The translations under genes and the position numbers were made by a program. DNA of 64,000 nucleotides from Candidatus Borrarchaeum weybense (GTDB taxonomy: Archaea > Asgardarchaeota > Sifarchaeia > Borrarchaeales > Borrarchaeaceae), in the NCBI GenBank assembly GCA_019057385.1, contig JAHQJS010000003.1, forward strand, positions 83,212 to 147,211, read 5' to 3'. The notes beneath the pieces were generated by a model, which was given only the letters and a program-made list of their open reading frames with translations, did not search any database and was not told the origin of the DNA. Positions 1,868-54,126 of the stretch are shown here, one piece after another (position 1 is the first letter of the stretch; each line of letters begins with the position of its first letter).

Positions 1868-3340
1868 CTATTTTGCAGTAGAAGAAGAATCTTCTGTTCT
1901 GAACATGCTTTTTAATTGGCTCATTTTTTCCATTGTGAGATTGAATAACTGTTCCGAAATTATAGATTCTTCTTTAGCATATTCAAGTTTTTCTAAATCG
2001 ATGACACGTGTAAAATCTTCAGTTCGGATTAAATCGACTTCAAGATCAACGTATCTGATCCGATGAGGTTCTGGATAGAGTCCTGGATAGATCTCCACTG
2101 GAGTATTTATATTGAGATACTCTCCTTTGTAAATTCCATCTCGCGAGAAATATGTCGTTTTTACAAAAAATTCTCCTTCAATTATTTCCATAACACCATA
2201 ATCACCTTCTTCTTTGGGAAGATTAAGACCATCAAATTTTCCTCCAGCCTTAAACATTCGTTTTATGAGTAGTTTTCTTTCATTTGGATCGCTTTTTATT
2301 ACATACCCAGGCGATAGAAAAAGTGTCCTTCCATTAAACTTAACGTGGTCAATACAGACTTCAGAGCCTAATGAAGGAAATGTTTCAGAAAATACGAAAT
2401 CTGCAGCCTCGTTAATAATAACATAATGTTCAGGCAATTTGGCAAGAATTCTTTCACCAAAATCAACTAATAATGATAAATCGTAACCCATTGCTTTGAG
2501 TTGGTGATGGTTTCTAACTGTTGCAACAACTTCGCTTCGAATTTCATCAAGTTTTACTTTGGAAAGACTTGGAAATTCCAAAAAAGTTGTTGTATTCTCT
2601 TCATATACGGCTGCTGGCGCTTTGGTCTTTTCCGCTTTCTTAGATATCATCTGTGCTAATTTTTTTAAGTCCTCGATTTCGGCAATAAGCACTGTTACAT
2701 CTTCTGAGGCTGCGGCTGTGCGCCATAAAACTCCCCATGAATCAGGTTTGATGGTTTTCCCCAAAAAGAATAACTCATCTCGTTTTTTCCCACGAATTTT
2801 ATGACTTATCCGAACCACATTTTCGGGAATCAAGACAGCATATTTGCCAGCTATTGTTATGTTTGGCTGTACTTCAGATAATCCAGGTCTAACTTTTTCT
2901 ACACGTACAAGAAGTTCGTCACCTTCATTGATTTCTTCATTAAAGTTAGTATTATCCAGATGAAGTATGCCGTCTGTTCTCCCTAAATTTAATATCGCGT
3001 AATCTCGCTCCAAATTTACTCTCGTGACAATTCCTTTATAGAAGCCATTTGGACTAACTTTTGTATAAAAAACCGTAAGATCAGGAAGAAGCGACCGTAA
3101 AATTTCAAGCAATTCTTCAATAGTCTCTTCTTTCCCATTGAGTTCTACGCCCTGTCTATTCCGTCTGTCAAAAATATCTATATCGAAAGGCACACGTAAA
3201 TCCTCAATTGCTCCCTTGAAACGTTGCAAAATAACAGTTGAAGGATATGTTAGTTTAAATCCATGATCTATGAGGATTTTTGCTAATGCGGTCGAATATA
3301 TTCCTCTGAGGCGAACTGTTGTTGCCTTTTTTTCCATCAT
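1868..3340 (-). CDS. fau-1: FAU-1-like RNA-binding protein / ribonuclease (S1 + DUF402)
   Basis: VRLRGIYSTAL N-terminus, WGVLWRTAA, YLNINTPVEIYP...RYVDLEVD. Confidence 0.85.
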   Translation of the reverse strand: MMEKKATTVRLRGIYSTALAKILIDHGFKLTYPSTVILQRFKGAIEDLRVPFDIDIFDRRNRQGVELNGKEETIEELLEILRSLLPDLTVFYTKVSPNGFYKGIVTRVNLERDYAILNLGRTDGILHLDNTNFNEEINEGDELLVRVEKVRPGLSEVQPNITIAGKYAVLIPENVVRISHKIRGKKRDELFFLGKTIKPDSWGVLWRTAAASEDVTVLIAEIEDLKKLAQMISKKAEKTKAPAAVYEENTTTFLEFPSLSKVKLDEIRSEVVATVRNHHQLKAMGYDLSLLVDFGERILAKLPEHYVIINEAADFVFSETFPSLGSEVCIDHVKFNGRTLFLSPGYVIKSDPNERKLLIKRMFKAGGKFDGLNLPKEEGDYGVMEIIEGEFFVKTTYFSRDGIYKGEYLNINTPVEIYPGLYPEPHRIRYVDLEVDLIRTEDFTRVIDLEKLEYAKEESIISEQLFNLTMEKMSQLKSMFRTEDSSSTAK

Positions 3341-7661: not shown

Positions 7662-7759
7662 TATGAATTAAATCTTATCGTTAGTTCTTTCATCAATATA
7701 AGATAACTTAGTTTGATTCTTACCGTTCCTTTCATAATAGACATCTATTACAGCGAATA

Positions 7760-8054
7760 GTGTCTATCCACCCACGATAAGAACATGAGTGGAGGGCCCG
7801 CTAGGACGGTTAAGCGGGATACCTACCGCCATATAGGGTGCAGGCCTTGCGTGAACGAAACGATGATTTATTATCAGCGTTCCCGCAGAATCGACGGCGT
7901 ACGGGAGTGCTGGGCTGAAGTCCGTGAAGTGGTCCCGGGGCGAATGCTTAAACCTCCGGGTGCCTCATCTTACCATCAATTCTCACTTATATACTGGAGG
8001 ACCTGCTTTATAAACACCACGCCTCACGCGTTCACTGTGGAACCCCTTGCCCGC
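7760..8054 (-). ncRNA. Unassigned GC-rich structured RNA (family unknown; possibly a degenerate IS200/IS605 derivative)
   Basis: Clearly more GC-rich than its flanks, with many hairpins. CCACTCATG/CGTGGGTGG pairs fully only on the minus strand (two G-U pairs). TTTTATA box about 26 nt upstream of 8054. Confidence 0.45.
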
Positions 8055-8093
8055 GAAAGAATCGTCTATATTTGTCTATAAAATAAATAACTG

Positions 8094-8384
8094 TTAATCA
8101 CCCTCTTGTAACTTTTGTTTGATCACAAAAACTCGTATTTTTTCCTCTGCAATTATAAGTGTATCATTGATGGATTTAATTACAGAATGAGGAATTAAAA
8201 TTGTTCCTTTCTCATCGCGCGGAAATTTTTCAATATCTGGATGTTTAGTAGGCTTCACACACACCGCTAATAGGTGGCCATCTCGCGAATTAATTATGAA
8301 ATCAACTACCTTTCCCATAGCAGAACCTTTTTCATCAGTTACAGAAATACCAACTAAGTCCCGGATATCGATGATTTCCGACAT
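8094..8384 (-). CDS. PRC-barrel domain protein
   Basis: DLVGISVTDEKGSAMGKVVDFII...LIPHSVIKSINDTLII. Confidence 0.85.
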   Translation of the reverse strand: MSEIIDIRDLVGISVTDEKGSAMGKVVDFIINSRDGHLLAVCVKPTKHPDIEKFPRDEKGTILIPHSVIKSINDTLIIAEEKIRVFVIKQKLQEGD

Positions 8385-8634
8385 TTTTCATCCCATCAGA
8401 CCTTGCATGAGTCGGTCTATGTTAAATCAATATTTTTTGCTATTAATATCATCTGCTTCGAGTTATAAATTAGTCAAGTCATATTGACAGAACCTTTTCA
8501 AAAAGCAAAAATGAGAGTAGAATTGGAAAATTCAAAATTCGATTCAATAAATCTCGAATGAAAAGTGAAAACTAAAGAACGCTGTGCAATTATCTTCGTT
8601 TAAATCATACAAAAGTCTATCATAATGCAGGAAA

Positions 8635-8659
8635 TAGGAGGGAATAATCCCTCCTTATC
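8635..8659 (-). terminator. Hairpin closing the 3' side of the RAMP island RNA
   Basis: AGGAGGG-AATAAT-CCCTCCT inverted repeat just downstream (minus strand) of repeat copy 1. Confidence 0.4.
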
Positions 8660-8700
8660 TAATATTTACAGGAATGCCGATTAAGTCGCGGATATTTTTT

Positions 8701-8791
8701 TGACATTTTTCGTCCCCTGCGAGTCATTCATTCCCAACAAGTGAGGCGTCGGACCTCTAATTTGGTTCAGTCTCATGCACAAGAACGTGTC
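8701..8791 (-). repeat. RAMP-associated structured repeat, copy 1 (candidate ncRNA scaffold)
   Basis: 82/91 identical to 9813-9903. Outer stem GACA-CGTTCTTGTG/CGCAGGGGACG-AAAAA-TGTC and inner GAGG/CCTC hairpin. Confidence 0.85.
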
Positions 8792-8850
8792 CCCCGTGAT
8801 ATACGAAGAACATTCCGCCTTGTAACTCATTAAACCTCTTGAAAAGAGTC

Positions 8851-8859
8851 TATATAAAC
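8851..8859 (-). promoter_or_regulatory. TATA box for a transcript containing repeat copy 1
   Basis: GTTTATATA on the minus strand, just after the stop of 8881..9708, with no real gene downstream. Confidence 0.5.
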
Positions 8860-8880
8860 ACCGCGATTCAAAACAAAGAT

Positions 8881-9708
8881 TCATTCTTGCCATGTATACA
8901 AACCACTCTTCAAGTCATCAAGATAGAGATTTACCATAAGGAGTAGGTGATTTTTTAAAGATGAAAAGCCAAATTTTAGCGCTTCGCTGATCTTATCAAA
9001 CGCTTGACATTTTCGAATATAAGTATAAAGAGCATAAGGGGAATATTGACGCCTTTCTATCTCTATTTTTAATACATCGAAATCAATTTTTTCTAATTCT
9101 GTCACACGATAACGAGAGGACGCTGACCATCTAAATTTTCGAGAAATCATTGCAGATAGTCGGTCATAATGTTGTAATAAATAAAGCCAAAGAAAATCTT
9201 TTTCATCTATATCATAATTGTGATGATTCTTTGCAAGTTTGAAGACATCTTCGTCAGCTATATCAACATCAGTATAAATTTTACTTGGATGTCGATCAGT
9301 GCCTACAAAATCATGCAGGAGCATTGCTATAATTAACTTTTCCTGCATATCTGAGAGTTTAGGAAGTTTCTTACGAATCTTAATTCTTCTTGTAGTATAG
9401 AGAGGCTTTTTCTTGAGTTTTTTGAGAGAAGTCCAAAAGATTCGTCCCATCCCCTCACATGTATAACTTCCAACACTATCAATAGCAAGTGCTTCTTCAA
9501 GTTTATGTTCTGAAACGATAAACTCAATATTACCAAACCACGCCCTAAAGGTCATTGGCGCACGTCTTTGTCCTACCGTTAATTTTCCGAATACCCTGGG
9601 ACGACCTTTTATGGTCATCGCTCCAACGTCGGTAACTCCAAAATGTCTACGCTTTGAAACAATAGGAGTTTTTGTATAACCAATTAATTTAAAGTATTTC
9701 TGTGGCAT
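8881..9708 (-). CDS. Compact RAMP (Cas5-like) domain fused to an HD nuclease domain
   Basis: RAMP beta-1 (FKLIGYTKTPIV) and G-rich loop (VGSYTCEGMGRI), followed by HD motifs MLLHDF...NHH...YDRLSA. Confidence 0.7.
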   Translation of the reverse strand: MPQKYFKLIGYTKTPIVSKRRHFGVTDVGAMTIKGRPRVFGKLTVGQRRAPMTFRAWFGNIEFIVSEHKLEEALAIDSVGSYTCEGMGRIFWTSLKKLKKKPLYTTRRIKIRKKLPKLSDMQEKLIIAMLLHDFVGTDRHPSKIYTDVDIADEDVFKLAKNHHNYDIDEKDFLWLYLLQHYDRLSAMISRKFRWSASSRYRVTELEKIDFDVLKIEIERRQYSPYALYTYIRKCQAFDKISEALKFGFSSLKNHLLLMVNLYLDDLKSGLYTWQE

Positions 9709-9758
9709 TTTATTCCCTCTTATAAGATTTTACCTCCTCTTTGAACAAAAGAGAGGAG

Positions 9759-9771
9759 ATATAAACCTTGC
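9759..9771 (-). promoter_or_regulatory. Promoter motif GCAAGGTTTATAT upstream of the RAMP-HD gene
   Basis: Identical 13-mer at 10808-10820 upstream of the Cas7-like gene; contains a TATA box. Confidence 0.6.
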
Positions 9772-9812
9772 CAAAGTAAACACGTTTGCAACTGTTGTTT
9801 GTAAAGTGGGTA

Positions 9813-9903
9813 TGACATTTTTCGTTCCTTGCGAGTCATCCGTCCCCAACAATTGAGGCGTCGGACCTCTAAGCTGGTTCAGTCTCATGCACAAGAACGT
9901 ATC
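9813..9903 (-). repeat. RAMP-associated structured repeat, copy 2
   Basis: 82/91 identical to 8701-8791. Outer-stem differences keep pairing (G-U to A-U, C-G to U-G). Confidence 0.85.
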
Positions 9904-9962
9904 ACTCACATCAGTAAGTGATAAACCGTAATGAGATGAGAAAAAAAGTTGAAATAAATGTG

Positions 9963-10772
9963 TCACACAGCCACCTTCTCATCCTGTTTACTCATAGTAT
10001 TCAAAGAAGTTCTCCAATCCTCGATTTTACTTAGAGAAAGCGGAATTTCAGTGGTTTCTTCTATAATTTTATAGTTTCCTTCGCTATCCTCTTCGACTCT
10101 TCGAAAAGTCTCAACCTTCTGAAGAGCAATATTAAGGATTTTGACGCAACCATATCCACTTGACCGTCCTGCCCCAAGAATTTCTACGTAGAGCATTGCT
10201 TCTATAAGAAACTTGATTTCAACATCAGTTAGATTAGTGACATCAATTTGAAAGGAAAAAAATCCACTGAAATAACTCTCACGAAAGTCTTGGATGGGAG
10301 TACCATCATAGGCAAGCGCTATTCTGTTTTCACTAGAGATGTGGACATTTTGAACTGGCACTATTGTTATAAAATCTTTGTGTTTAATCGAGGCAATAGG
10401 GTCTGCTGCGACAACAATAGAGGACTTTTCACGGAAGGTGCCAAAGATTGTTCTGAGAATACAGGGAGGATCGCATGTACCAAGCGCATGAAATCCTTGC
10501 GGAAGAACACTTTTACCATCTTTAAGTTCAGTTTTTTCAGAACTATGACATACTTCGATGTTGCAGTCTTGAGCAAGTTCCATACAGGCATGTCTTAACA
10601 TCCCTCGGATACCTTTAATGTAATAAAATTTAGTATTGAACGTTTTTTCTCCATTCACATAAGGAAATTTCCCTAACAAGAGCATGCTAGAATTTTTCTG
10701 AATCGAGGCATTGATAGGCTTTGCTATGGGTGTAAAGGCGTGAACAACTATCTGGTTTTTGATTTTTCTCAT
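9963..10772 (-). CDS. Cas7-like RAMP superfamily protein
   Basis: IVVHAFTPI beta-1, IKGIRGMLRHA helix, Cys/His insertion ending CDPPCILRTIFG, C-terminal G-loop ILGAGRSSGYG. Confidence 0.85.
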   Translation of the reverse strand: MRKIKNQIVVHAFTPIAKPINASIQKNSSMLLLGKFPYVNGEKTFNTKFYYIKGIRGMLRHACMELAQDCNIEVCHSSEKTELKDGKSVLPQGFHALGTCDPPCILRTIFGTFREKSSIVVAADPIASIKHKDFITIVPVQNVHISSENRIALAYDGTPIQDFRESYFSGFFSFQIDVTNLTDVEIKFLIEAMLYVEILGAGRSSGYGCVKILNIALQKVETFRRVEEDSEGNYKIIEETTEIPLSLSKIEDWRTSLNTMSKQDEKVAV

Positions 10773-10807
10773 GTTTCCAACCTCAAATATATTTAGTACA
10801 AGTACCT

Positions 10808-10820
10808 ATATAAACCTTGC
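10808..10820 (-). promoter_or_regulatory. Promoter motif GCAAGGTTTATAT upstream of the Cas7-like gene
   Basis: Identical to 9759-9771. Confidence 0.6.
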
Positions 10821-11115
10821 TCAAAATAAACACTTTTTCTACTCTTGTTAGTAAAATGGGGTTTAAAATGACTTCCTTTTTAGAAATAAAGTATTTTAAA
10901 CAGGTTTTATGTGAAAAACCATTGTATGTTTAGAACCTGATTTATAAATCACAATGTAACATTCAATTTACATCATCATTTTTTTAAAAGAATAGTTGTT
11001 TGATTTAACAAAATTAAGTTTCTTCGGGAATTCAAAAAGAGTACATTGATGGTATCAACTAAACTAAAAATCGTTCGAAAAAAATAATTGTTCCATTGAT
11101 GGTTGCTAATAAAAA

Positions 11116-14100
11116 TTAGGGCAATAGATCTTTTACTGTAACTGGAGGACCCTTTTTCTGTGGTTTATAGATGCCTTCTAAATGTTGGAATCTTTCAAAC
11201 ATTAAGTGGAGAGTTTCCTTATCTGGAGCGTAAATAAAGGGGATGAATCGCTTATTTTCTAGCAAAAAATCCTTGAGTTGTACTGCACACTGCCTTAAAG
11301 CCTCCATTACTGTCATCTTCTGTTCAAGATAGTATATTTCTTGATTGAGTATATCATCAACTAGTCTCTCAACTTTGTAGTGTCCATTCCATGTTAGGTG
11401 ATAGAATTGTTCGTGTTCAAGCGTTTTACGCTTCTTGAAATCAGCTTTTGTAAATTCACCATACAAACATGCTAAAATTAGGGTGAGCCTGAACAAGGGA
11501 ATAAACATTTCTCGAAAATCAAAGATAGTGCCTAGAAAGGAGCGTTGGGTTTTTTTAAAGTGCAGTATCAGTTCATCCGGTACCCAAGAAAATCCTACTT
11601 CAGCGAGTGCTTTTCGACAGTAAAGGTTAAGATGACGATAAACAGCATTGAGTGCAGCACTAAAGGGTGTACGTGCTTTTACTTCTCCTAAAAGGACAAC
11701 GGTGGAAATATAGCGTTCTAGGGTACGACTAATGATCTCAAAGTAGGTTCCTCTTAGCAAACGTTTAGGGATTTCCCAGGCAACTCCTTCAACTAAGCCT
11801 TCAAACCCACGGAGGTTGTCAATATTACCCCTCCAATAGAGAAAAGTATATGCTACTCGATCCAGCAATTTAGATAAGAGCTCTTGAGCATTTTCAGCAG
11901 ATAACAACCCCTCTTTTTCAACTTGGAGTACTGAATTGGCTAGACCTATATCTTTACTTATTGTCAGAAGCCATGCTAGCAATTTGCCTCGTTCTGTTCC
12001 TCTGATTCGCTGAGCGGCATATTTCAGTTCGTCGGCTACCTGTTGTTTCTTTGGAGTTAGTTTATTTTGTGCAAAGAAACTACCTTTTGGTGTATTTGCA
12101 TCAATGAGTTTCTTGCTATATTTCTTACGAATGTATTGCGATATATCGCCACCTTCAATGATGATATTACGGATAGCACCGACTAAATACCGTTTTGTTT
12201 CTCTTCCGTCTTTTAGTGTATGAACAAATCGTTTTTTTCTAATATCGAGCCTTTCATTACACTTGACACGGATATTTCGTTTTGGTCTTCTGATATAGAC
12301 CTTTGTCTTTTTAACTCTCTGAACATAATTCCCGGGCTTACCTATAAGCAGTTCTAAATTTGTTTGCAATACATCACGATAACCCGGTTTTATTACAAGT
12401 TCACCATTAACGGTCAAATGATAACTGGAATTGCATTCAGGACAGACTGTATATTCCATATATGAGGACGGTAATTCCACAATGCCACGAGGTTTACAGT
12501 TTAAACATGTAATGCTGCCATTTGTTTCTTGCAATATTCTTATTTTACGTTTTTTTAACCTTTGAACATTTTCGTGATGTTCGCATGCACTCTTCCTTGG
12601 TGTGGCGTAAGGATTTCTTGCTCGTTTTCCTACTTGTTTGTTTAATTTGCAGTTTAACACACAAACATGTGCATGTTTCGATCTTCGACGGTCCTTTATA
12701 GGGTTTATCTGAATGAACTTACAAGATCCACAGGTGAGCCGAAGATGTTCAGGAATACTTGCGTTCACATCAGCTACATAGATTTTGGGGCGCCCTCGAA
12801 GCTGACCTTGAGAGATAACCTGTATTTGCTCTTGTATTTTTAACTGCTTGATGTGCTTAACTATCGTAGTATAGTGAACATTTTGATTGTATTGCTTGCG
12901 AACCTCTGACAAAATAAAATCGTAAGAAATGATTCCATGTTTTTTAATAATGTTATAAATTGCTTTATGAAGTCCGGGATATGGTTTCGGTCTTTGCTTT
13001 GGATACCAACGTCTCTTTTTAACTTTTTTCGCTTCATTAGCTTTAAGCTCATTATATTTAGCATTTAGTTTAGTTGAGAGTTCTTTAGCGACTCGTGCTT
13101 CTCTCAGGTCTCTTTGTCCCAAAAAGCTATAACTTGCTTCTGCGATCCATGAGGCTGTTTTCTTATGAGATTCAGCATCACCCAGTCGTATTTTTGCCTG
13201 AATTGCAGCTTCTGTTACTGTAGATCCTTGACTTAGTAACTTAATGAAGGCTGTATACTGTTGGGCGTTATACCGTTTGGTGTTACTTAGTTCACGCATA
13301 CATTGCCCAACAAGTTTGACTAATTGTTGGGAAAACTCCTGTTCTGAAGAGGAATGATTTGTGACAAAAAACTTCTTGATCCTTATTGCAATTTTGATCG
13401 GCAGTAAATATTTACTTGCCCAACGACCCTTGTCTGTTGCACAGAACCTTCCTCCATTTTTTCTAACAAAACCTTCCGTGATCAGCGTTTGAAGGATACC
13501 CTGTTTCTTATTTCTTTCATCAGACTCAGGTTTAGCCAATAGATCTCCTTTTAATTGCTGTTTGAAGTCTTTCAATTTGTCATAGGTGAATGGTGTGAGA
13601 AATAAGCGAAGTTCGCCGTATTTAACCTTGTTTGCAGTGGTTCTTTTCCTGATCCAAATGAAAAATGTTCGAGTTAATCGTTTCAAGTCGTTCGGCAGGG
13701 AACCTTTGTGTGCGTCGAATAGTATTAACAGTAAATGATTTTCATTATTAAGTTGGCATAGTTCCTCTTCTTTGGTCATAAGTGCACTATTCATTAGTTC
13801 GAACCAGTTCCGTAGCATTGTTTTGTATTGATGAAAGAAATAGTGCCTTTCAAGTTTGCTCAGTAATTGATTCGAGGATACAGAACCCTTAGCTATTAAT
13901 GTAAGTACAATATCTGCCATTGAAGAACGTGCTTGGCTTTTAATGCTATGTTCTTTCACTATCAGTTGTCCTTCAACGATTTGTATCTCCTTTTGTTTCA
14001 GAAGTTCTTGGTCGTTTCCAACAAAGATCAAGTCAGCATACCCAATCCTATGATGTCGCGGTCGTGCCGCCCTGCCACTCAGTTGTATAAGCAGTTGGGG

Positions 14101-15099
14101 GCTGAACATTTCAGCATCGTTGATTATCACTCGTTTAATCGGAAAGTTAACCCCCTCTCCGTATTGGATTGTTGAAACAAAGACCTGAAATTCGCCATTG
14201 TTAAGTCGCCTCATAGCTTCTCGTTGTTCTTTCTTACTGAGTCCTGCGTGACTGTAGCCAACTTTGAGATCGAAACCAGAATTCTTGAGAAAGATCTGCA
14301 ATATTTCAGCATATTTCTCAACCTGTTTTCGTGTGTAACAGAAGAGTTGCACGATTTTGATCTGATGTTCATCATTCGAAGGTTGCTCAAAGGTCTTTTT
14401 TATCAATCTAGCGAAAAGAAAAATCTTTTTTCGTTCAATTTGTTCTAATTTATTGCCTGAAATTCCAAAAGTCGACACAATAAGTGTCGATCGCCGCTCT
14501 TTTGTGTGTATAAGATGAGCATCGAGCCAACTTGCCAGATCTTCAGTATTACCTAATGTAGCCGAGAGATAGATAATTTGCGGACGAGGACGCAACCACG
14601 CTTTAGCATTAACAATTGCGGTTTCTAGGTGCACGCCCCGCCCTTTTTTGCCTAAATTGTGCAGTTCGTCAACTACCAGCAATCCCACTTGGTCTAAGAA
14701 TGGATATTCAAAATGTTTGGCTAGTAGTCCATTAAAGGATTCGTAGGTGATGACGAGAATATCCGCACTTTGAATCTCTTCAGGAGCTGGTCGATCATCT
14801 CCGCTGACCCTGAGGATGGTACATGTGTCTTGATACCACTCTTTGAATCTATCGTACATTTGATCGATTAGACGCTTGGTCGGCTCAAGGATCACACAGC
14901 GCAAACCTTTTCCTAGTATTTTTGTAGACATTATTTGAGCGATCAAGGTTTTTCCCGAAGCTGTGGGAGAGTACAATATCTTATCCTGTCTTTGCTTCCC
15001 AGAAAAACATGCTTCCCATTGAAAATCGTAGAGAGCTTTGATGTCAGCCTGTTCTAATCGTTGACGAATGAATTCGTAGTTAAACCCTCTTTTTGTCAT
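11116..15099 (-). CDS. SF2 (Ski2/Hel308-like) helicase - wHTH/Zn-finger - Cas1-like integrase fusion
   Basis: N-terminus: PTASGKT, VVDELH, LSAT, HAGL, QLSGRAAR. Middle: CGSC, CLNC, CPEC. C-terminus: Cas1-type LRGFEG, SAALNAVYRHL, GFSWVPDELILH, FDFREMFIP. Confidence 0.8.
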   Translation of the reverse strand: MTKRGFNYEFIRQRLEQADIKALYDFQWEACFSGKQRQDKILYSPTASGKTLIAQIMSTKILGKGLRCVILEPTKRLIDQMYDRFKEWYQDTCTILRVSGDDRPAPEEIQSADILVITYESFNGLLAKHFEYPFLDQVGLLVVDELHNLGKKGRGVHLETAIVNAKAWLRPRPQIIYLSATLGNTEDLASWLDAHLIHTKERRSTLIVSTFGISGNKLEQIERKKIFLFARLIKKTFEQPSNDEHQIKIVQLFCYTRKQVEKYAEILQIFLKNSGFDLKVGYSHAGLSKKEQREAMRRLNNGEFQVFVSTIQYGEGVNFPIKRVIINDAEMFSPQLLIQLSGRAARPRHHRIGYADLIFVGNDQELLKQKEIQIVEGQLIVKEHSIKSQARSSMADIVLTLIAKGSVSSNQLLSKLERHYFFHQYKTMLRNWFELMNSALMTKEEELCQLNNENHLLLILFDAHKGSLPNDLKRLTRTFFIWIRKRTTANKVKYGELRLFLTPFTYDKLKDFKQQLKGDLLAKPESDERNKKQGILQTLITEGFVRKNGGRFCATDKGRWASKYLLPIKIAIRIKKFFVTNHSSSEQEFSQQLVKLVGQCMRELSNTKRYNAQQYTAFIKLLSQGSTVTEAAIQAKIRLGDAESHKKTASWIAEASYSFLGQRDLREARVAKELSTKLNAKYNELKANEAKKVKKRRWYPKQRPKPYPGLHKAIYNIIKKHGIISYDFILSEVRKQYNQNVHYTTIVKHIKQLKIQEQIQVISQGQLRGRPKIYVADVNASIPEHLRLTCGSCKFIQINPIKDRRRSKHAHVCVLNCKLNKQVGKRARNPYATPRKSACEHHENVQRLKKRKIRILQETNGSITCLNCKPRGIVELPSSYMEYTVCPECNSSYHLTVNGELVIKPGYRDVLQTNLELLIGKPGNYVQRVKKTKVYIRRPKRNIRVKCNERLDIRKKRFVHTLKDGRETKRYLVGAIRNIIIEGGDISQYIRKKYSKKLIDANTPKGSFFAQNKLTPKKQQVADELKYAAQRIRGTERGKLLAWLLTISKDIGLANSVLQVEKEGLLSAENAQELLSKLLDRVAYTFLYWRGNIDNLRGFEGLVEGVAWEIPKRLLRGTYFEIISRTLERYISTVVLLGEVKARTPFSAALNAVYRHLNLYCRKALAEVGFSWVPDELILHFKKTQRSFLGTIFDFREMFIPLFRLTLILACLYGEFTKADFKKRKTLEHEQFYHLTWNGHYKVERLVDDILNQEIYYLEQKMTVMEALRQCAVQLKDFLLENKRFIPFIYAPDKETLHLMFERFQHLEGIYKPQKKGPPVTVKDLLP

Positions 15100-15640
15100 A
15101 ATAATGATCTGCCCCCTCAGCTTCGTCTAATTAGATATTAGCTAAAATTCATTTATAAAGCGGGTAAACTTTCAAATCGATTGCTAGAATGTTCTATTCG
15201 ATAAAAAACAAGTTTGCCTTCGGCATAGTTACCTTCGCTATGTCGCTTCTCAAAAAAAAACCACCGTTGAAGAAGGTAATTAATCCTTCTCTTCAATGAT
15301 AGAGGAGGGTTCGATTTTAATCACCTATAGAACATAATGAAATACAGAGGACAAAAAACTACAATAAGACTTATTGCTTCCAAAGTATTTAAACTCGACA
15401 ACTCGTGATTTAAGTAGTTAATCAAGAAGGCTAAACTTCTTAGAAAATATGGTAGAAGAATCTTCATCGAAAAAGGTTTTTGAGGGAAAAGAAAAACATC
15501 TGTGACATTGTTCCTACTATAAGTTTGCCGATAAAGTTAAAAAAAAGACTTCGTATAGATATTGTCCAATACTTTGGCACAATAATGTAACTCGTGGACT
15601 ATTTTAATAATATAAGTTCCCTTGTAATCAAACAATTGAA

Positions 15641-15817
15641 GCGGGGGTGTCCGAGATCTCCTCTCAATGGAGAGTAACGGGAACTTGGCCAAAGGAGCAG
15701 GACTGAGGCTCCTGTGGCGTAGAGAAGCATTAGATGCCTTAGGTTTCGCGATCGCCTGCGTGGGTTCGAAGGAATAAAGCAAAATGGCTTATTCCGAAAA
15801 TCCCATCCCCCGCACCA
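15641..15817 (+). tRNA. tRNA-Leu(GAG) with 3 non-canonical introns, CCA encoded
   Basis: Near copy of 3409-3585. Anticodon GAG at 15705-15707; different T-loop intron. Confidence 0.9.
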
Positions 15818-15906
15818 CTCTTCACTCACGGAACAAATTACTGGTTTTTAATGGGTTAAATATGCGCCTTAATGTTGCAACATAATGTATTGTCAATTTT
15901 CTCTTA

Positions 15907-16221
15907 GTGAGCTACCTCGTGCTAAAGCTTTGAGGCTTCCTGCTTCTACGACAGACTCGATCCCCTGGCGGGTTACGGAGGTCTTATCTCCACAGGCTTA
16001 ACATCCCTACGCCCCGTAGGTACGGTTAACCATCGTGATGCAATCGAAGTATGCATCTTGACTACAAGTGTGCGTGTGATCCCTCCAATTGCAGTTGATA
16101 TCTCGTCATACCAGCTATATAACTCTTAGGGAGACCCCTCGATGCAAGTGATAAAAGTGAACACATATTATTGCAATTCATCACCACGCTGAAGCTTTGG
16201 TGCTTTCTTGCTCAGCTACTC
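15907..16221 (-). mobile_element. Non-autonomous IS200/IS605 (TnpB-type) miniature element
   Basis: Subterminal hairpins, right end ...TAGCTCAC, TTAC next to the left end (16222-16225). Homologous blocks at both ends of 43000-43588. Confidence 0.8.
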
Positions 16222-16243
16222 GTAATTTTTCATTAGATTTCTT

Positions 16244-53853: not shown

Positions 53854-54126
53854 GTCCTATCGCCTCCTTTAACGTCTGTTAAAGTAGGTTGGTTCTCTTC
53901 GCCAAGGTTATCAGTCAGTACTCTACGGTGATCACTGAGAGTTTCCTCTCTGTTTAAACCATCATTTACAGAGCAAGGGACTAGAGAAGCATCCCTTGGT
54001 GTGTTCTTGAACTCTCCTGATAACTCAGATACCGCCATAAACTGTATGACCTCTCTTAGGCTAATCAACTAATTGCTCTCATTCCTCACGGAACAAGCCC
54101 CTACCCTTTAGGTTGGGGTAATTGAC
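53854..54126 (-). ncRNA. IscB omegaRNA scaffold (guide comes from the flank above 54126)
   Basis: Typical order GTCAA-hairpin, AGTTGATTAGCCTAAG, GGATGCTTCTCTAGTCCC, TAAACA, AACCTTGGCGAAGAGAAC. Confidence 0.85.

Follow-up and report, generated by a model that had tools for sequence, protein, structure and literature searches.

A conserved structured element beside the RAMP genes of an ARAMP cassette in Candidatus Borrarchaeum weybense

The ARAMP cassette and its relatives

Omega-RNAs and CAST homing guides are located at the end of mobile elements, crRNAs carry 8-nt repeat-derived handles, and CreA of CreTA is a crRNA-like regulator with a promoter-matching pseudo-spacer. ARAMP systems, found in Asgard archaea, comprise diverged Cas7-like and Cas5-like/HD RAMP genes and a distinct Cas1, are array-less, and have a mechanism that has been called enigmatic (PMC8730458, PMC12669027); no RNA component of ARAMP is described in these two reviews. 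Here, we analyzed a 64,000-nucleotide stretch (the window) of the Candidatus Borrarchaeum weybense genome, which carries on its reverse strand a cassette in the order helicase-Cas1-like gene, promoter module, Cas7-like gene, R, promoter module, RAMP-HD gene, R, where R is a repeated element of about 125 nt. With a Cas7-like RAMP protein, a second RAMP protein with an HD domain, no adjacent array, and an Asgard host, the cassette is the published ARAMP system, from which it differs in having a conserved structured element after each RAMP gene and in being inserted DNA.

The RAMP-HD protein (p275; 8881–9708, reverse strand, as are all features below) has a predicted N-terminal RAMP-like domain and an HD-type nuclease domain, in which H132-D133, H140, H162-H163, and D182 are invariant among 29 homologues. 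Its AlphaFold2 model (pLDDT 85.8) retrieved in Foldseek top matches that were all CRISPR RAMP subunits, the matches being weak (E ~0.01, TM 0.2–0.3) and placing the protein at the level of RAMP rather than specifically with Cas5. The Cas7-like protein (p269; 9963–10772) matches Pfam RAMPs (PF03787) at 28.3 bits, above the cut-off of 22.1, and TIGR03986 weakly. The third protein (11116–15099; 1327 amino acids) is a helicase of the Ski2/Hel308 type, with DEAD, ResIII, and Helicase_C domains. Searches against Pfam, NCBIfam, and PDB sequences, including one with a 4-sequence profile, gave no direct Cas1 match for the C-terminal region of the window protein; homologues 79 and 74% identical to it over residues 880–1327 match Pfam Cas1 (PF01867) at 39 bits across profile positions 7–264 of 283, suggesting that this long region is Cas1-like by homology. 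Homologues are labeled by their sources as Borrarchaeum, Promethearchaeota, Heimdallarchaeota, and Thorarchaeota. A genome-wide search for CRISPR arrays (repeats spaced 50–100 nt) found only C4:145003-168270, whose repeat is unrelated to R, and none beside the cassette.

The source genome holds ~10 paralogous cassettes and about 26 counted copies of R, 21 of which come directly after the p269 gene, the p275 gene, or a third gene of small size, in line with the linkage to RAMP genes that the initial annotation implied. These places are fixed across paralogues whose proteins share only 63–89% identity, and R retains ~78–83% nucleotide identity where the neighboring proteins share ~65%. The same layout, with R, recurs in GCA_019058535.1 (Candidatus Borrarchaeum sp.) and in metagenome contigs, and another locus of the source genome (C3:63500-67500) is 99% identical to GCA_019058535.1. 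On the other hand, a second ARAMP type in the source genome is without R, and R was not found, with filters off, in more distant ARAMP loci (G028, G061) or in a virus-borne RAMP pair. The refuting case named in the initial annotation, of dispersed copies unlinked to RAMP genes, was borne out in part: relatives carry many solo copies near housekeeping genes. A genome contains between 3 and at least 30 copies, which are frequently found at the ends of contigs. At least 30 are present in G005, a fragmented, 80% complete genome from another family, in which only two broken pieces of p275 and no p269 were found; R can therefore persist where no RAMP gene adjoins it. An orthologous solo copy was not seen to be better conserved than its neighbor gene (~88 versus ~85%). 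DNA contigs of four runs, compared with the window, showed only repeat-related joints and depth bumps.

Extent, fold, and coding capacity of element R

The two window copies were first noticed as a 91-nt direct repeat (8701–8791 and 9813–9903; 82 of 91 positions, or 90%, identical and ungapped), spaced 1112 nt apart, which our comparison reproduces, and the size of the genomic family rules out a chance origin. These 91 bases are the cores of R; its boundary, taken earlier to be the limit of similarity between the two copies, lies ~35 nt further 5', beyond a hairpin that we call P1. Copy 1, of the terminal or B-type, follows the RAMP-HD gene at 8701–8823 (covariance-model match 8688–8840, 157.6 bits, E 1e-30), starts with ACAAGGCGG at 8823, has P1 at 8812–8788, and ends in the tail AUGUCA (8706–8701), of which GUC (8704–8702) is the pseudoknot tail. 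Copy 2, of the internal or A-type, follows the Cas7-like gene at 9813–9935 (match 9797–9951, 142.3 bits, E 1.5e-27), with P1 at 9923–9900; upstream of it stands an oligo-T/CTCATC tract that an alignment of upstream regions shows to be common to all A-type copies. R starts ~60–90 nt past the stop codons of the upstream genes. A putative TATA-like box, GGTGTTTATATAG (8852–8862, or more narrowly 8859–8852), lies ~26 nt upstream of the start of copy 1 and is kept at equal distance in three sister copies (C4:339353, C4:423789, and C5:118039).

Four helices and a pseudoknot are supported by covariation. Across 51 copies from six genomes, 95.0% of cells pair, compared with 39–49% when partners are slid, and two-sided changes occupy 136 cells as against 26–40 in the slid controls, a number reached in none of 500 shuffles; the 23 copies of the source genome alone gave the same outcome. 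The letters of P1 differ between copies 1 and 2, with compensatory changes preserving the pairing; 8 of the 9 pairs of P1 show such changes. The 5' hairpin of copy 2, earlier listed as part of a variable flank, is this conserved helix of R. The outer stem (CGUUCUU/GGGGACG), described in the initial annotation as keeping its pairing, is real and conserved, and its substitutions are solely of G-U to A-U. The pseudoknot joins the loop of the inner hairpin with the 3' tail as GAC/GUC or CAC/GUG and was left out of the covariance model, yet 94.7% of its cells pair; for example, alignment pair 98–153 is C-G in 22 copies, G-C in 20, and A-U in one, and pair 100–151 is C-G in 43 and U-A in two. Because P2 is rich in G-U pairs, the fold is strand-specific: it forms on the gene-sense strand only, which supports the constant scaffold first proposed on that strand. 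Long unpaired stretches are also invariant, and sequence conservation of R as a whole is 75–95%.

That both copies instead encode a duplicated micropeptide (MRLNQxRGPTP...), a caveat raised with the first description, is barely credible. The frame is open in most copies; one copy is frameshifted, another contains a stop, and 1-nt indels alter the C terminus. Variability by codon position is 0.133, 0.176, and 0.178, with no excess at the third position, and on this lack of codon periodicity we reject the peptide. An AUG not preceded by a ribosome-binding site also speaks against it, as do conservation and compensatory pairs that reach well beyond the ORF.

A search of Rfam with R returned no family at gathering score and none at E up to 10. 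By eye, readings as a K-turn (CUGA ... GAUGA), a hammerhead-like, or an HDV-like motif were discarded, their pairings or core residues being unfit. R resembles a CRISPR repeat in being a repeated element associated with RAMP proteins, and its motif ACGA(A/G)AAA near the 3' end recalls the repeat-derived handles of crRNAs. A CRISPR array has repeats of 25–40 nt and spacers of 30–40 nt, whereas R is 125 nt long and a 1-kb gene separates the copies, and on this ground we rejected R as an array or crRNA.

Insertion of the cassette and the 3' border of R

A PRC-barrel gene carries within its 5' end a 6.9-kb segment (8376–15292, flanks ATCATTGA and ATCATCGA) that two congeneric genomes (G004 and G002) lack, which identifies the cassette as an insertion. 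Homology to the empty site of the relatives begins at 8375. The very end of the inserted DNA is an R-tail-like 15-mer, GGGATGAAAAATGTC (8380–8394), a pattern that occurs only three times in the window, in the two R tails and here; the ATG within it (8384–8382) is the current start codon of the PRC-barrel gene. A covariance-model search for a full decayed R at this gene start yielded just 5.7 bits (E 4.5). At nine other, independent sites, empty-site homology begins at the 3' end of R, and the right border of the inserted DNA thus coincides with the 3' end of R or with a remnant of its tail. In many cases, the host gene that comes next owes its ribosome-binding site or its start codon to this tail.

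Such borders could mean that R acts mainly as DNA, either as the terminal site at which the helicase-Cas1-like protein would recognize or recombine the cassette or as a MITE-like selfish repeat mobilized in trans, its fold then being that of single-stranded DNA or incidental. We regard this as improbable. In its favor, besides the nine borders and the tail remnant, are short duplications flanking two insertions (8 nt in the window and ~12 nt at C4:562540-562986, the only two cases), a site at which the presence or absence of R is the sole difference between two genomes (G000 and G004), the copy numbers and contig-end positions given above, and the loss of p275 at C3:65760 through recombination between two R copies, as seen against GCA_019058535.1. 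It is opposed by the pseudoknot and the G-U-rich, strand-specific, gene-co-oriented helices, which are typical of RNA. The distance from tail to border varies from 4 to 19 nt, and A- and B-type copies have kept their respective positions ever since the divergence of the cassettes. In the source genome, at least one solo copy did not arise as a transposed unit but is what remains of a decayed cassette. At its left end (15100–15292), the window insertion carries no R; this end is unique in the genome and, by reading, bears no inverted-repeat relation to the right end.

Two kinds of DNA repeat invite comparison here. Like integron attC cassettes, the locus has a structured repeat after each co-oriented gene, an adjoining integrase-like gene, and deletion of cassette genes by repeat recombination. 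However, attC sites keep structure and hardly any sequence, act as folded single-stranded DNA, and require a tyrosine recombinase, whereas R is conserved in sequence and pseudoknotted, and the candidate integrase is Cas1-like. REP/BIME, Correia/NEMIS, and MITE repeats are likewise scattered between genes in dozens of copies, a number of them immediately before start codons, and affect the ends of neighboring genes; R differs from them in its more complex fold, in its strong position-specific link to one cassette, and in having no terminal inverted repeats. In the R alignment, ACAAGGCGG... at one end is not the reverse complement of ...GGUSAUA at the other.

Flanks of R and its candidate roles

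The initial annotation read the flanks of the two copies as variable, guide-like segments, a view that our results do not sustain as stated. Copy 2 has as its 3' flank a promoter-like module (9758–9810) ending in GCAAGGTTTATAT, and 44 of its 53 positions are identical to a second module upstream of p269 (10807–10860; score 64, against a shuffled maximum of 29); the module end is a TATA box. This duplication is present in every other cassette, and the flank is conserved among paralogues. As a second copy of the module upstream of p269, it is a promoter or leader rather than a guide. An A-type flank that matches a promoter recalls the pseudo-spacer of CreA. The 3' flank of copy 1, on the other hand, is a piece of a host gene: directly after the tail lies a 32-nt sense fragment (8664–8695) from the 5' part of the PRC-barrel coding region. 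It is identical to the G004 allele at 31 of 32 positions; with the resident gene, in which the corresponding 32 nt are at 8368–8337, it shares 25 of 30 positions of the aligned core. It is followed by a hairpin, AGGAGGGAttatTCCCTCCT (8636–8655), and a T-rich run, which the hairpin scan suggests as a possible terminator of a transcript of copy 1 and its flank; a similar hairpin lies 3' of a terminal R in G004:C9. A homing-type guide and a scar of insertion or recombination fit the host fragment equally well.

As the initial annotation has it, R might provide a genuine guide RNA with its constant scaffold; the variable segment adjoining it on the 3' side would lead either the Cas7/RAMP-HD complex or the Cas1-like integrase to a target that it matches. 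Three terminal copies in the source genome have, within 5–20 nt, a 25–34-nt sense piece of the gene at the border of the same insertion (the PRC-barrel gene, a dihydroorotate dehydrogenase gene, and an FtsY-like gene) and then a hairpin; a tandem R array in G004 contains 37–46 nt of 16S rRNA; and the position of R at the element end resembles that of omega-RNAs and CAST homing guides. The omega-RNAs and reRNAs of IscB and TnpB (IS200/IS605) are likewise long structured scaffolds, encoded immediately 3' of an effector gene where the mobile element ends, and a read-through transcript would include flanking DNA in both cases. The effectors here, however, are RAMP proteins with an HD nuclease, not RuvC, no IscB or TnpB gene lies in the cassette, R matches neither HEARO nor another Rfam family, and there is a second, internal R copy. 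Uniform spacer-like fragments after R were looked for and rejected: a fragment occurs in only 4 of ~15 non-A copies, at lengths of 25–78 nt. The fragments always match nearby or own-genome DNA and never a virus, the majority of flanks are contiguous host DNA, the A-type flank duplicates a promoter, and target duplication or recombination scars give the same pattern. A guide scaffold of this kind appears quite unlikely. A narrower proposal, which we also doubt, is that a terminal R with its 25–35 nt of host sequence would form a homing guide RNA of an RNA-guided, Cas1-based mobile element. Loaded with it, the Cas7/RAMP-HD complex would find the region in which a host gene starts, and insertion of the cassette there would fall to the helicase-Cas1 fusion. 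The proposal has an alternative form, namely that the fragments would be ~30-bp target duplications left by Cas1-type integration beside the R tail, R serving as a giant repeat-like anchor.

The tails of R bear on a role in translation. At least 10 copies carry GGUGAU in the tail and are followed, at a distance of exactly 7 nt, by a start codon, an arrangement that fits translation initiation. In addition, two or three R copies stand at gene-specific sites in each cassette where one would be enough for an RNA partner, which points to a role in cis. R could be a purely cis-acting punctuation element of the mRNA of a mobile cassette, neither protein partner nor guide: P1 and a U-rich run would end or stabilize the upstream message, the tail would supply a ribosome-binding site or start codon, and the pseudoknot would mask or unmask it. 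Such an explanation, although unlikely in our estimation, accounts for a co-oriented ORF exactly 7 nt past the tail AAAGGUGAUA in at least 10 copies, among them acyl-CoA dehydrogenase in two species, phosphoglucomutase, and a 96-amino acid GIY-YIG-like ORF found three times, and for the replacement by the R tail of the native GGUGA-type ribosome-binding site of empty sites. It also accounts for the bases that the pseudoknot takes (GUG of GGUGAU or, in the GUC type, the G of AUG and the next two bases), for the terminator-like score of P1 followed by CGUUCUUGUG in both window copies, and for the presence of one R per gene. It does not explain why the A-type R lies upstream of the promoter module of p275, ~100 nt from a start codon with its own ribosome-binding site, or why tails such as AAAGGUCA and AAAAGUCA contain neither binding site nor AUG, and a 125-nt fold with long invariant unpaired stretches exceeds what a leader needs.

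The reading that we put forward, tentatively and with somewhat less than even confidence, is that R is a non-coding, pseudoknotted RNA element of ~125 nt that forms an integral, position-specific part of the mobile ARAMP cassette in one group of Asgard archaea and is probably a partner of the RAMP proteins. R would be transcribed, either together with the gene that precedes it or from a TATA box of its own, would be bound and perhaps cut by the two RAMP proteins of the cassette, and could serve as the RNA component of the effector, by analogy with a crRNA repeat or an omega-RNA scaffold. R may be the RNA partner thought to be missing from ARAMP.

To our knowledge, ARAMP is listed, like HRAMP, its cousin in haloarchaea, among the array-less derivatives of CRISPR systems for which no RNA is known and whose mode of action is called enigmatic. 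A conserved pseudoknotted RNA element in every cassette is a concrete candidate for the missing RNA of ARAMP, and its defined borders, the empty-site comparison, and the natural variants make the system testable. Read in the plainest way, R still constitutes a new family of RNA, one that shapes the starts of genes and drives the loss of DNA by deletion in the genomes of Asgard archaea. If the host fragments after R do reflect guiding or Cas1-type integration, they would represent a new coupling of Cas1 to an RNA or to a long repeat.

Fold and coding potential of the repeated element

The 91-nt direct repeats at 8701-8791 and 9813-9903 are 82/91 identical, as the initial annotation had described, and lie 1112 nt apart on either side of a 275-codon ORF. 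The pair cannot be ascribed to chance because ~26 copies of the element (hereafter R) occur in the 4.18-Mb genome, many of them paired ~1105 nt apart, as found by BLAST and a covariance model. Once 23 of this genome's copies were aligned together with flanking sequence, the conserved unit proved to exceed 91 nt, the window copies spanning 8701..8823 (copy 1) and 9813..9935 (copy 2) on the minus strand. R starts with ~ACAAGRCGG and a hairpin (P1) of variable sequence but preserved pairing, followed by a near-invariant CACGUUCUUGUGCAUGAGACUGAACC and an inner hairpin that varies in length and is closed by GAGGUCYSACGCCUC; its 3' part consists of GGGRAUGGAUGAC, GGGGACG (the 3' strand of the closing helix), and a tail AAAA(U/G/A)GU(C/G)A. 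Compensatory changes at 8/9 pairs of P1 and G-U to A-U changes in the closing helix P2 were seen with RNAalifold and by explicit counting of pairs, which also supported P4 and a short, invariant P3. The P4 loop covaries with the R tail (GAC/GUC, CAC/GUG), giving a pseudoknot that pairs in 94.7% of cells among 51 copies from six genomes, although it was left out of the covariance model; one of its positions is G-C, C-G, or A-U, and another C-G or U-A. Across the whole structure, 95.0% of cells pair in these 51 copies, compared with 39-49% in controls with partners slid one to three columns along, and both-sided changes are seen in 136 cells versus 26-40 in the slid controls. Many pairs are G-U, so the fold exists on the gene-sense strand only. 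R is a strand-specific, pseudoknotted, non-coding fold, and an Rfam search returned no family matching it. The caveat that the two repeats might be a duplicated micropeptide found no backing in the alignment: in its frame the non-consensus fraction is 0.133, 0.176, and 0.178 at codon positions 1, 2, and 3, one copy is frameshifted and another carries a stop, 1-nt indels alter the C-terminus, and conservation and compensatory pairs reach far beyond the ORF. We regard a micropeptide as very improbable.

Cassette organization and promoter module

The neighbours in the window are archaeal housekeeping genes (RpoG/Rpb8, PAC2, Lsm, archaeosine TGT, and ribosomal proteins). A 1327-aa Ski2/Hel308-type helicase (11116-15099) comes first on the minus strand, followed by a 269-aa protein with a Pfam RAMPs match exceeding the cut-off (9963-10772), R copy 2, a 275-aa protein with an HD signature encoded by the ORF between the repeats (8881-9708), and R copy 1. 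The HD signature is invariant across 29 homologues, homologues of this protein come from Asgard sources only, and its well-folded N-terminal domain (pLDDT 85.8) gave weak top Foldseek matches, to CRISPR RAMP subunits only. A family search with the C-terminal 450 residues of the window's own helicase gave no direct match; homologues with 74-79% identity to that stretch score 39 bits against Pfam Cas1. Together these genes constitute the Asgard ARAMP system, which two reviews characterize as array-less, type III-derived, and enigmatic in mechanism (PMC8730458, PMC12669027).

The genome holds ~10 paralogous cassettes (protein identity 63-89%), and the locus of another of them is 99% identical to GCA_019058535.1, an NCBI assembly labelled Candidatus Borrarchaeum sp. 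R follows both the Cas7-like gene (A-type) and the RAMP-HD gene (B-type) at distances nearly constant across cassettes, and in one cassette also a third small gene; it is retained at fixed places within a mobile CRISPR-derived cassette. The two types differ in P1 and 5' context, the latter including an oligo-T/CTCATC tract in A-type copies, and GGTGTTTATATAG lies ~26 nt upstream of the window's B copy and of three sister copies. The abrupt ends of the 91-nt similarity are present as first noticed but, because the unit is longer than 91 nt and its A and B parts differ, they mark where a core common to both types gives way to parts specific to each, not the ends of the element. Directly 3' of every A-type copy is a ~53-nt module with a TATA box at its end, which is also found upstream of the Cas7-like gene (window pair 44/53 identical, score 64 versus a shuffled maximum of 29); the cassette can thus be read as two units of promoter module, gene, and R. 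By this match, the "different 3' flank" of copy 2, taken at first for a guide, is a promoter or leader.

R at the border of inserted DNA

Up to 7722 and from 16224 onward, the window is collinear with two congeneric genomes (G004 and G002), both of which lack 8376-15292. Their PRC-barrel gene starts with ~10 codons that remain at 15293-15330 in the window, where the gene instead begins ATG TCG GAA, taken from the 19 nt at the end of the insert. These 19 nt contain a perfect R-tail 15-mer (GGGAYGAAAAATGTC), a pattern with only two further occurrences in 64 kb, one in each R tail, and the insertion is flanked by ATCATTGA and ATCATCGA. At nine further sites where an R-bearing genome was compared with a relative's empty site (the host genes at these sites including phosphoglucomutase and acyl-CoA dehydrogenase), homology resumes 4-19 nt past the pseudoknot tail in all nine, two of which are solo copies in the window's genome. 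R is the right border of inserted DNA. At least one of the solo copies, C4:562887, is a remnant; it is a 447-nt insertion with homology, in its left part, to DNA upstream of the Cas7-like gene in a G004 cassette. Recombination between direct copies occurs as well: at C3:65760, the window's genome has a hybrid R and no RAMP-HD gene, and GCA_019058535.1 has both copies and the gene. These borders and the recombination fit an element acting as DNA, either as a site for integration or recombination or as a selfish repeat; given that the fold is confined to one strand, we consider this rather improbable and rank it after a cis-acting R.

GUG-type tails carry AAAGGUGAUA in place of the native GGUGA-type ribosome-binding site, and at least 10 copies have a co-oriented ORF starting exactly 7 nt downstream of this tail motif, R often giving translation start signals to the next gene. 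A purely cis-acting R, which ends messages and restarts translation, is a strong rival to an RNA bound by the cassette's proteins, if somewhat unlikely as the whole account. In some cassettes, an ORF of 96 codons whose start is GIY-YIG-like (VFYVYVILC..YTGYT; family by motif only) begins 7 nt past the terminal R (C4:903660-903950 in the window's genome, and loci L037 and L052); in the window's genome a third R stands behind it, and exactly that R is absent from G004.

Other features were observed in the window. A 380-nt segment with a 98-codon ORF (7723-8102), between the PAC2 and PRC-barrel genes, is absent there in G004 and G002, recurs in each of the four congeneric genomes and at several places in the window's genome, and looks like a small mobile insertion. 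A ~320-nt repeat (15906-16225) has ~100 BLAST matches in this genome, a depth of ~1070 versus ~33 in the source metagenome, and no Rfam match; other copies have a 36-38 nt stretch with ...CTATATAAACACCAC in place of 16024-16172. By eye, ~15640-15817 (plus strand) resembles an intron-interrupted tRNA gene with a long variable arm (GCGGGGGTG ... GGTTCGAA ... CCCCCGCACCA), with the left border of the inserted cassette ~350 nt away; ARAGORN called no tRNA anywhere in the window. HEARO, an RNA associated with IscB-type HNH endonuclease elements, has a full-length Rfam match (RF02033, 121 bits) at 53888-54126 (minus strand).

Host-gene fragments, distribution, and proposed role

Three terminal R copies in the window's genome have behind them, within 5-20 nt, a sense-oriented fragment of a nearby host gene and then a hairpin. 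The fragments are 32 nt of the PRC-barrel gene (8695-8664; 31/32 versus the G004 allele, 25/30 across the aligned core versus the resident gene), 25 nt from the gene for dihydroorotate dehydrogenase (24/25 identities), and 34 nt from an FtsY-like gene (27/34 identities). Past each, 150-400 nt of inserted DNA follow, up to or near the same host gene's start codon. Three tandem R copies between Cas7-like and RAMP-HD genes (G004:C9 (L094) 2392-3035), separated by 108 and 75 nt, form an array that includes 37-46 nt of 16S rRNA in sense orientation; the 75-nt stretch opens with this fragment, 92% identical to C5:332713-332749 of the window's genome (G000). The resident PRC-barrel 5' end (8337-8368) differs from the G004 allele at 6/32 positions, with three amino-acid changes; the remainder of the gene is ~94% identical to G004, and the orphan fragment (8664-8695) retains G004-like sequence. 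The pattern could reflect homing-type guides, ~30-bp target duplications from a further unit integrated beside the R tail, or scars of repeated insertion at a hot spot. Because few copies show the pattern and the fragments are non-uniform in length, our main explanation is not based on it. A true guide RNA with constant scaffold and variable flanks, as initially proposed, would accommodate such fragments; with the flank of copy 2 explained as promoter or leader, we judge it improbable.

The covariance model found R in 6/101 related genomes, including all four others of the genus (3 to 21 copies each) and one of another family in the same class (at least 30 copies), and not in the 95 other genomes under stricter filters. 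The RAMP-HD family occurs in almost the same genomes. No R was found in the more distant ARAMP loci searched, on a virus-like contig with a RAMP pair, or adjoining a second, distant ARAMP type in the window's genome (C5:80690-82259; 42% and 34% identity, genes overlapping). On ENA metagenome scaffold L079 (3253-4768), Cas7-like and RAMP-HD genes overlap, with no R, amid phage-type genes (Mu F, portal, large terminase, Cas4, and PCNA), so the effector pair may be one that an Asgard virus carries. The window's genome also has a genuine CRISPR array of about 49 or more repeats (C4:145003-168270), unrelated to R in sequence.

The ARAMP gene system is already published, and the literature searched describes no RNA for it. 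New here are the comparison of the window with empty sites, the rule for R borders seen at nine other sites, the translation-start signals in the R tail, the A/B types, the promoter module, the deletion via recombination between R copies, and the host-fragment pattern. Because RAMP proteins act on RNA, the system has no array, and R is conserved better than the proteins, our favoured, though tentative, reading is that R is the RNA that the cassette's RAMP proteins bind or process. The roles proposed for R can coexist, none being exclusive of the others.
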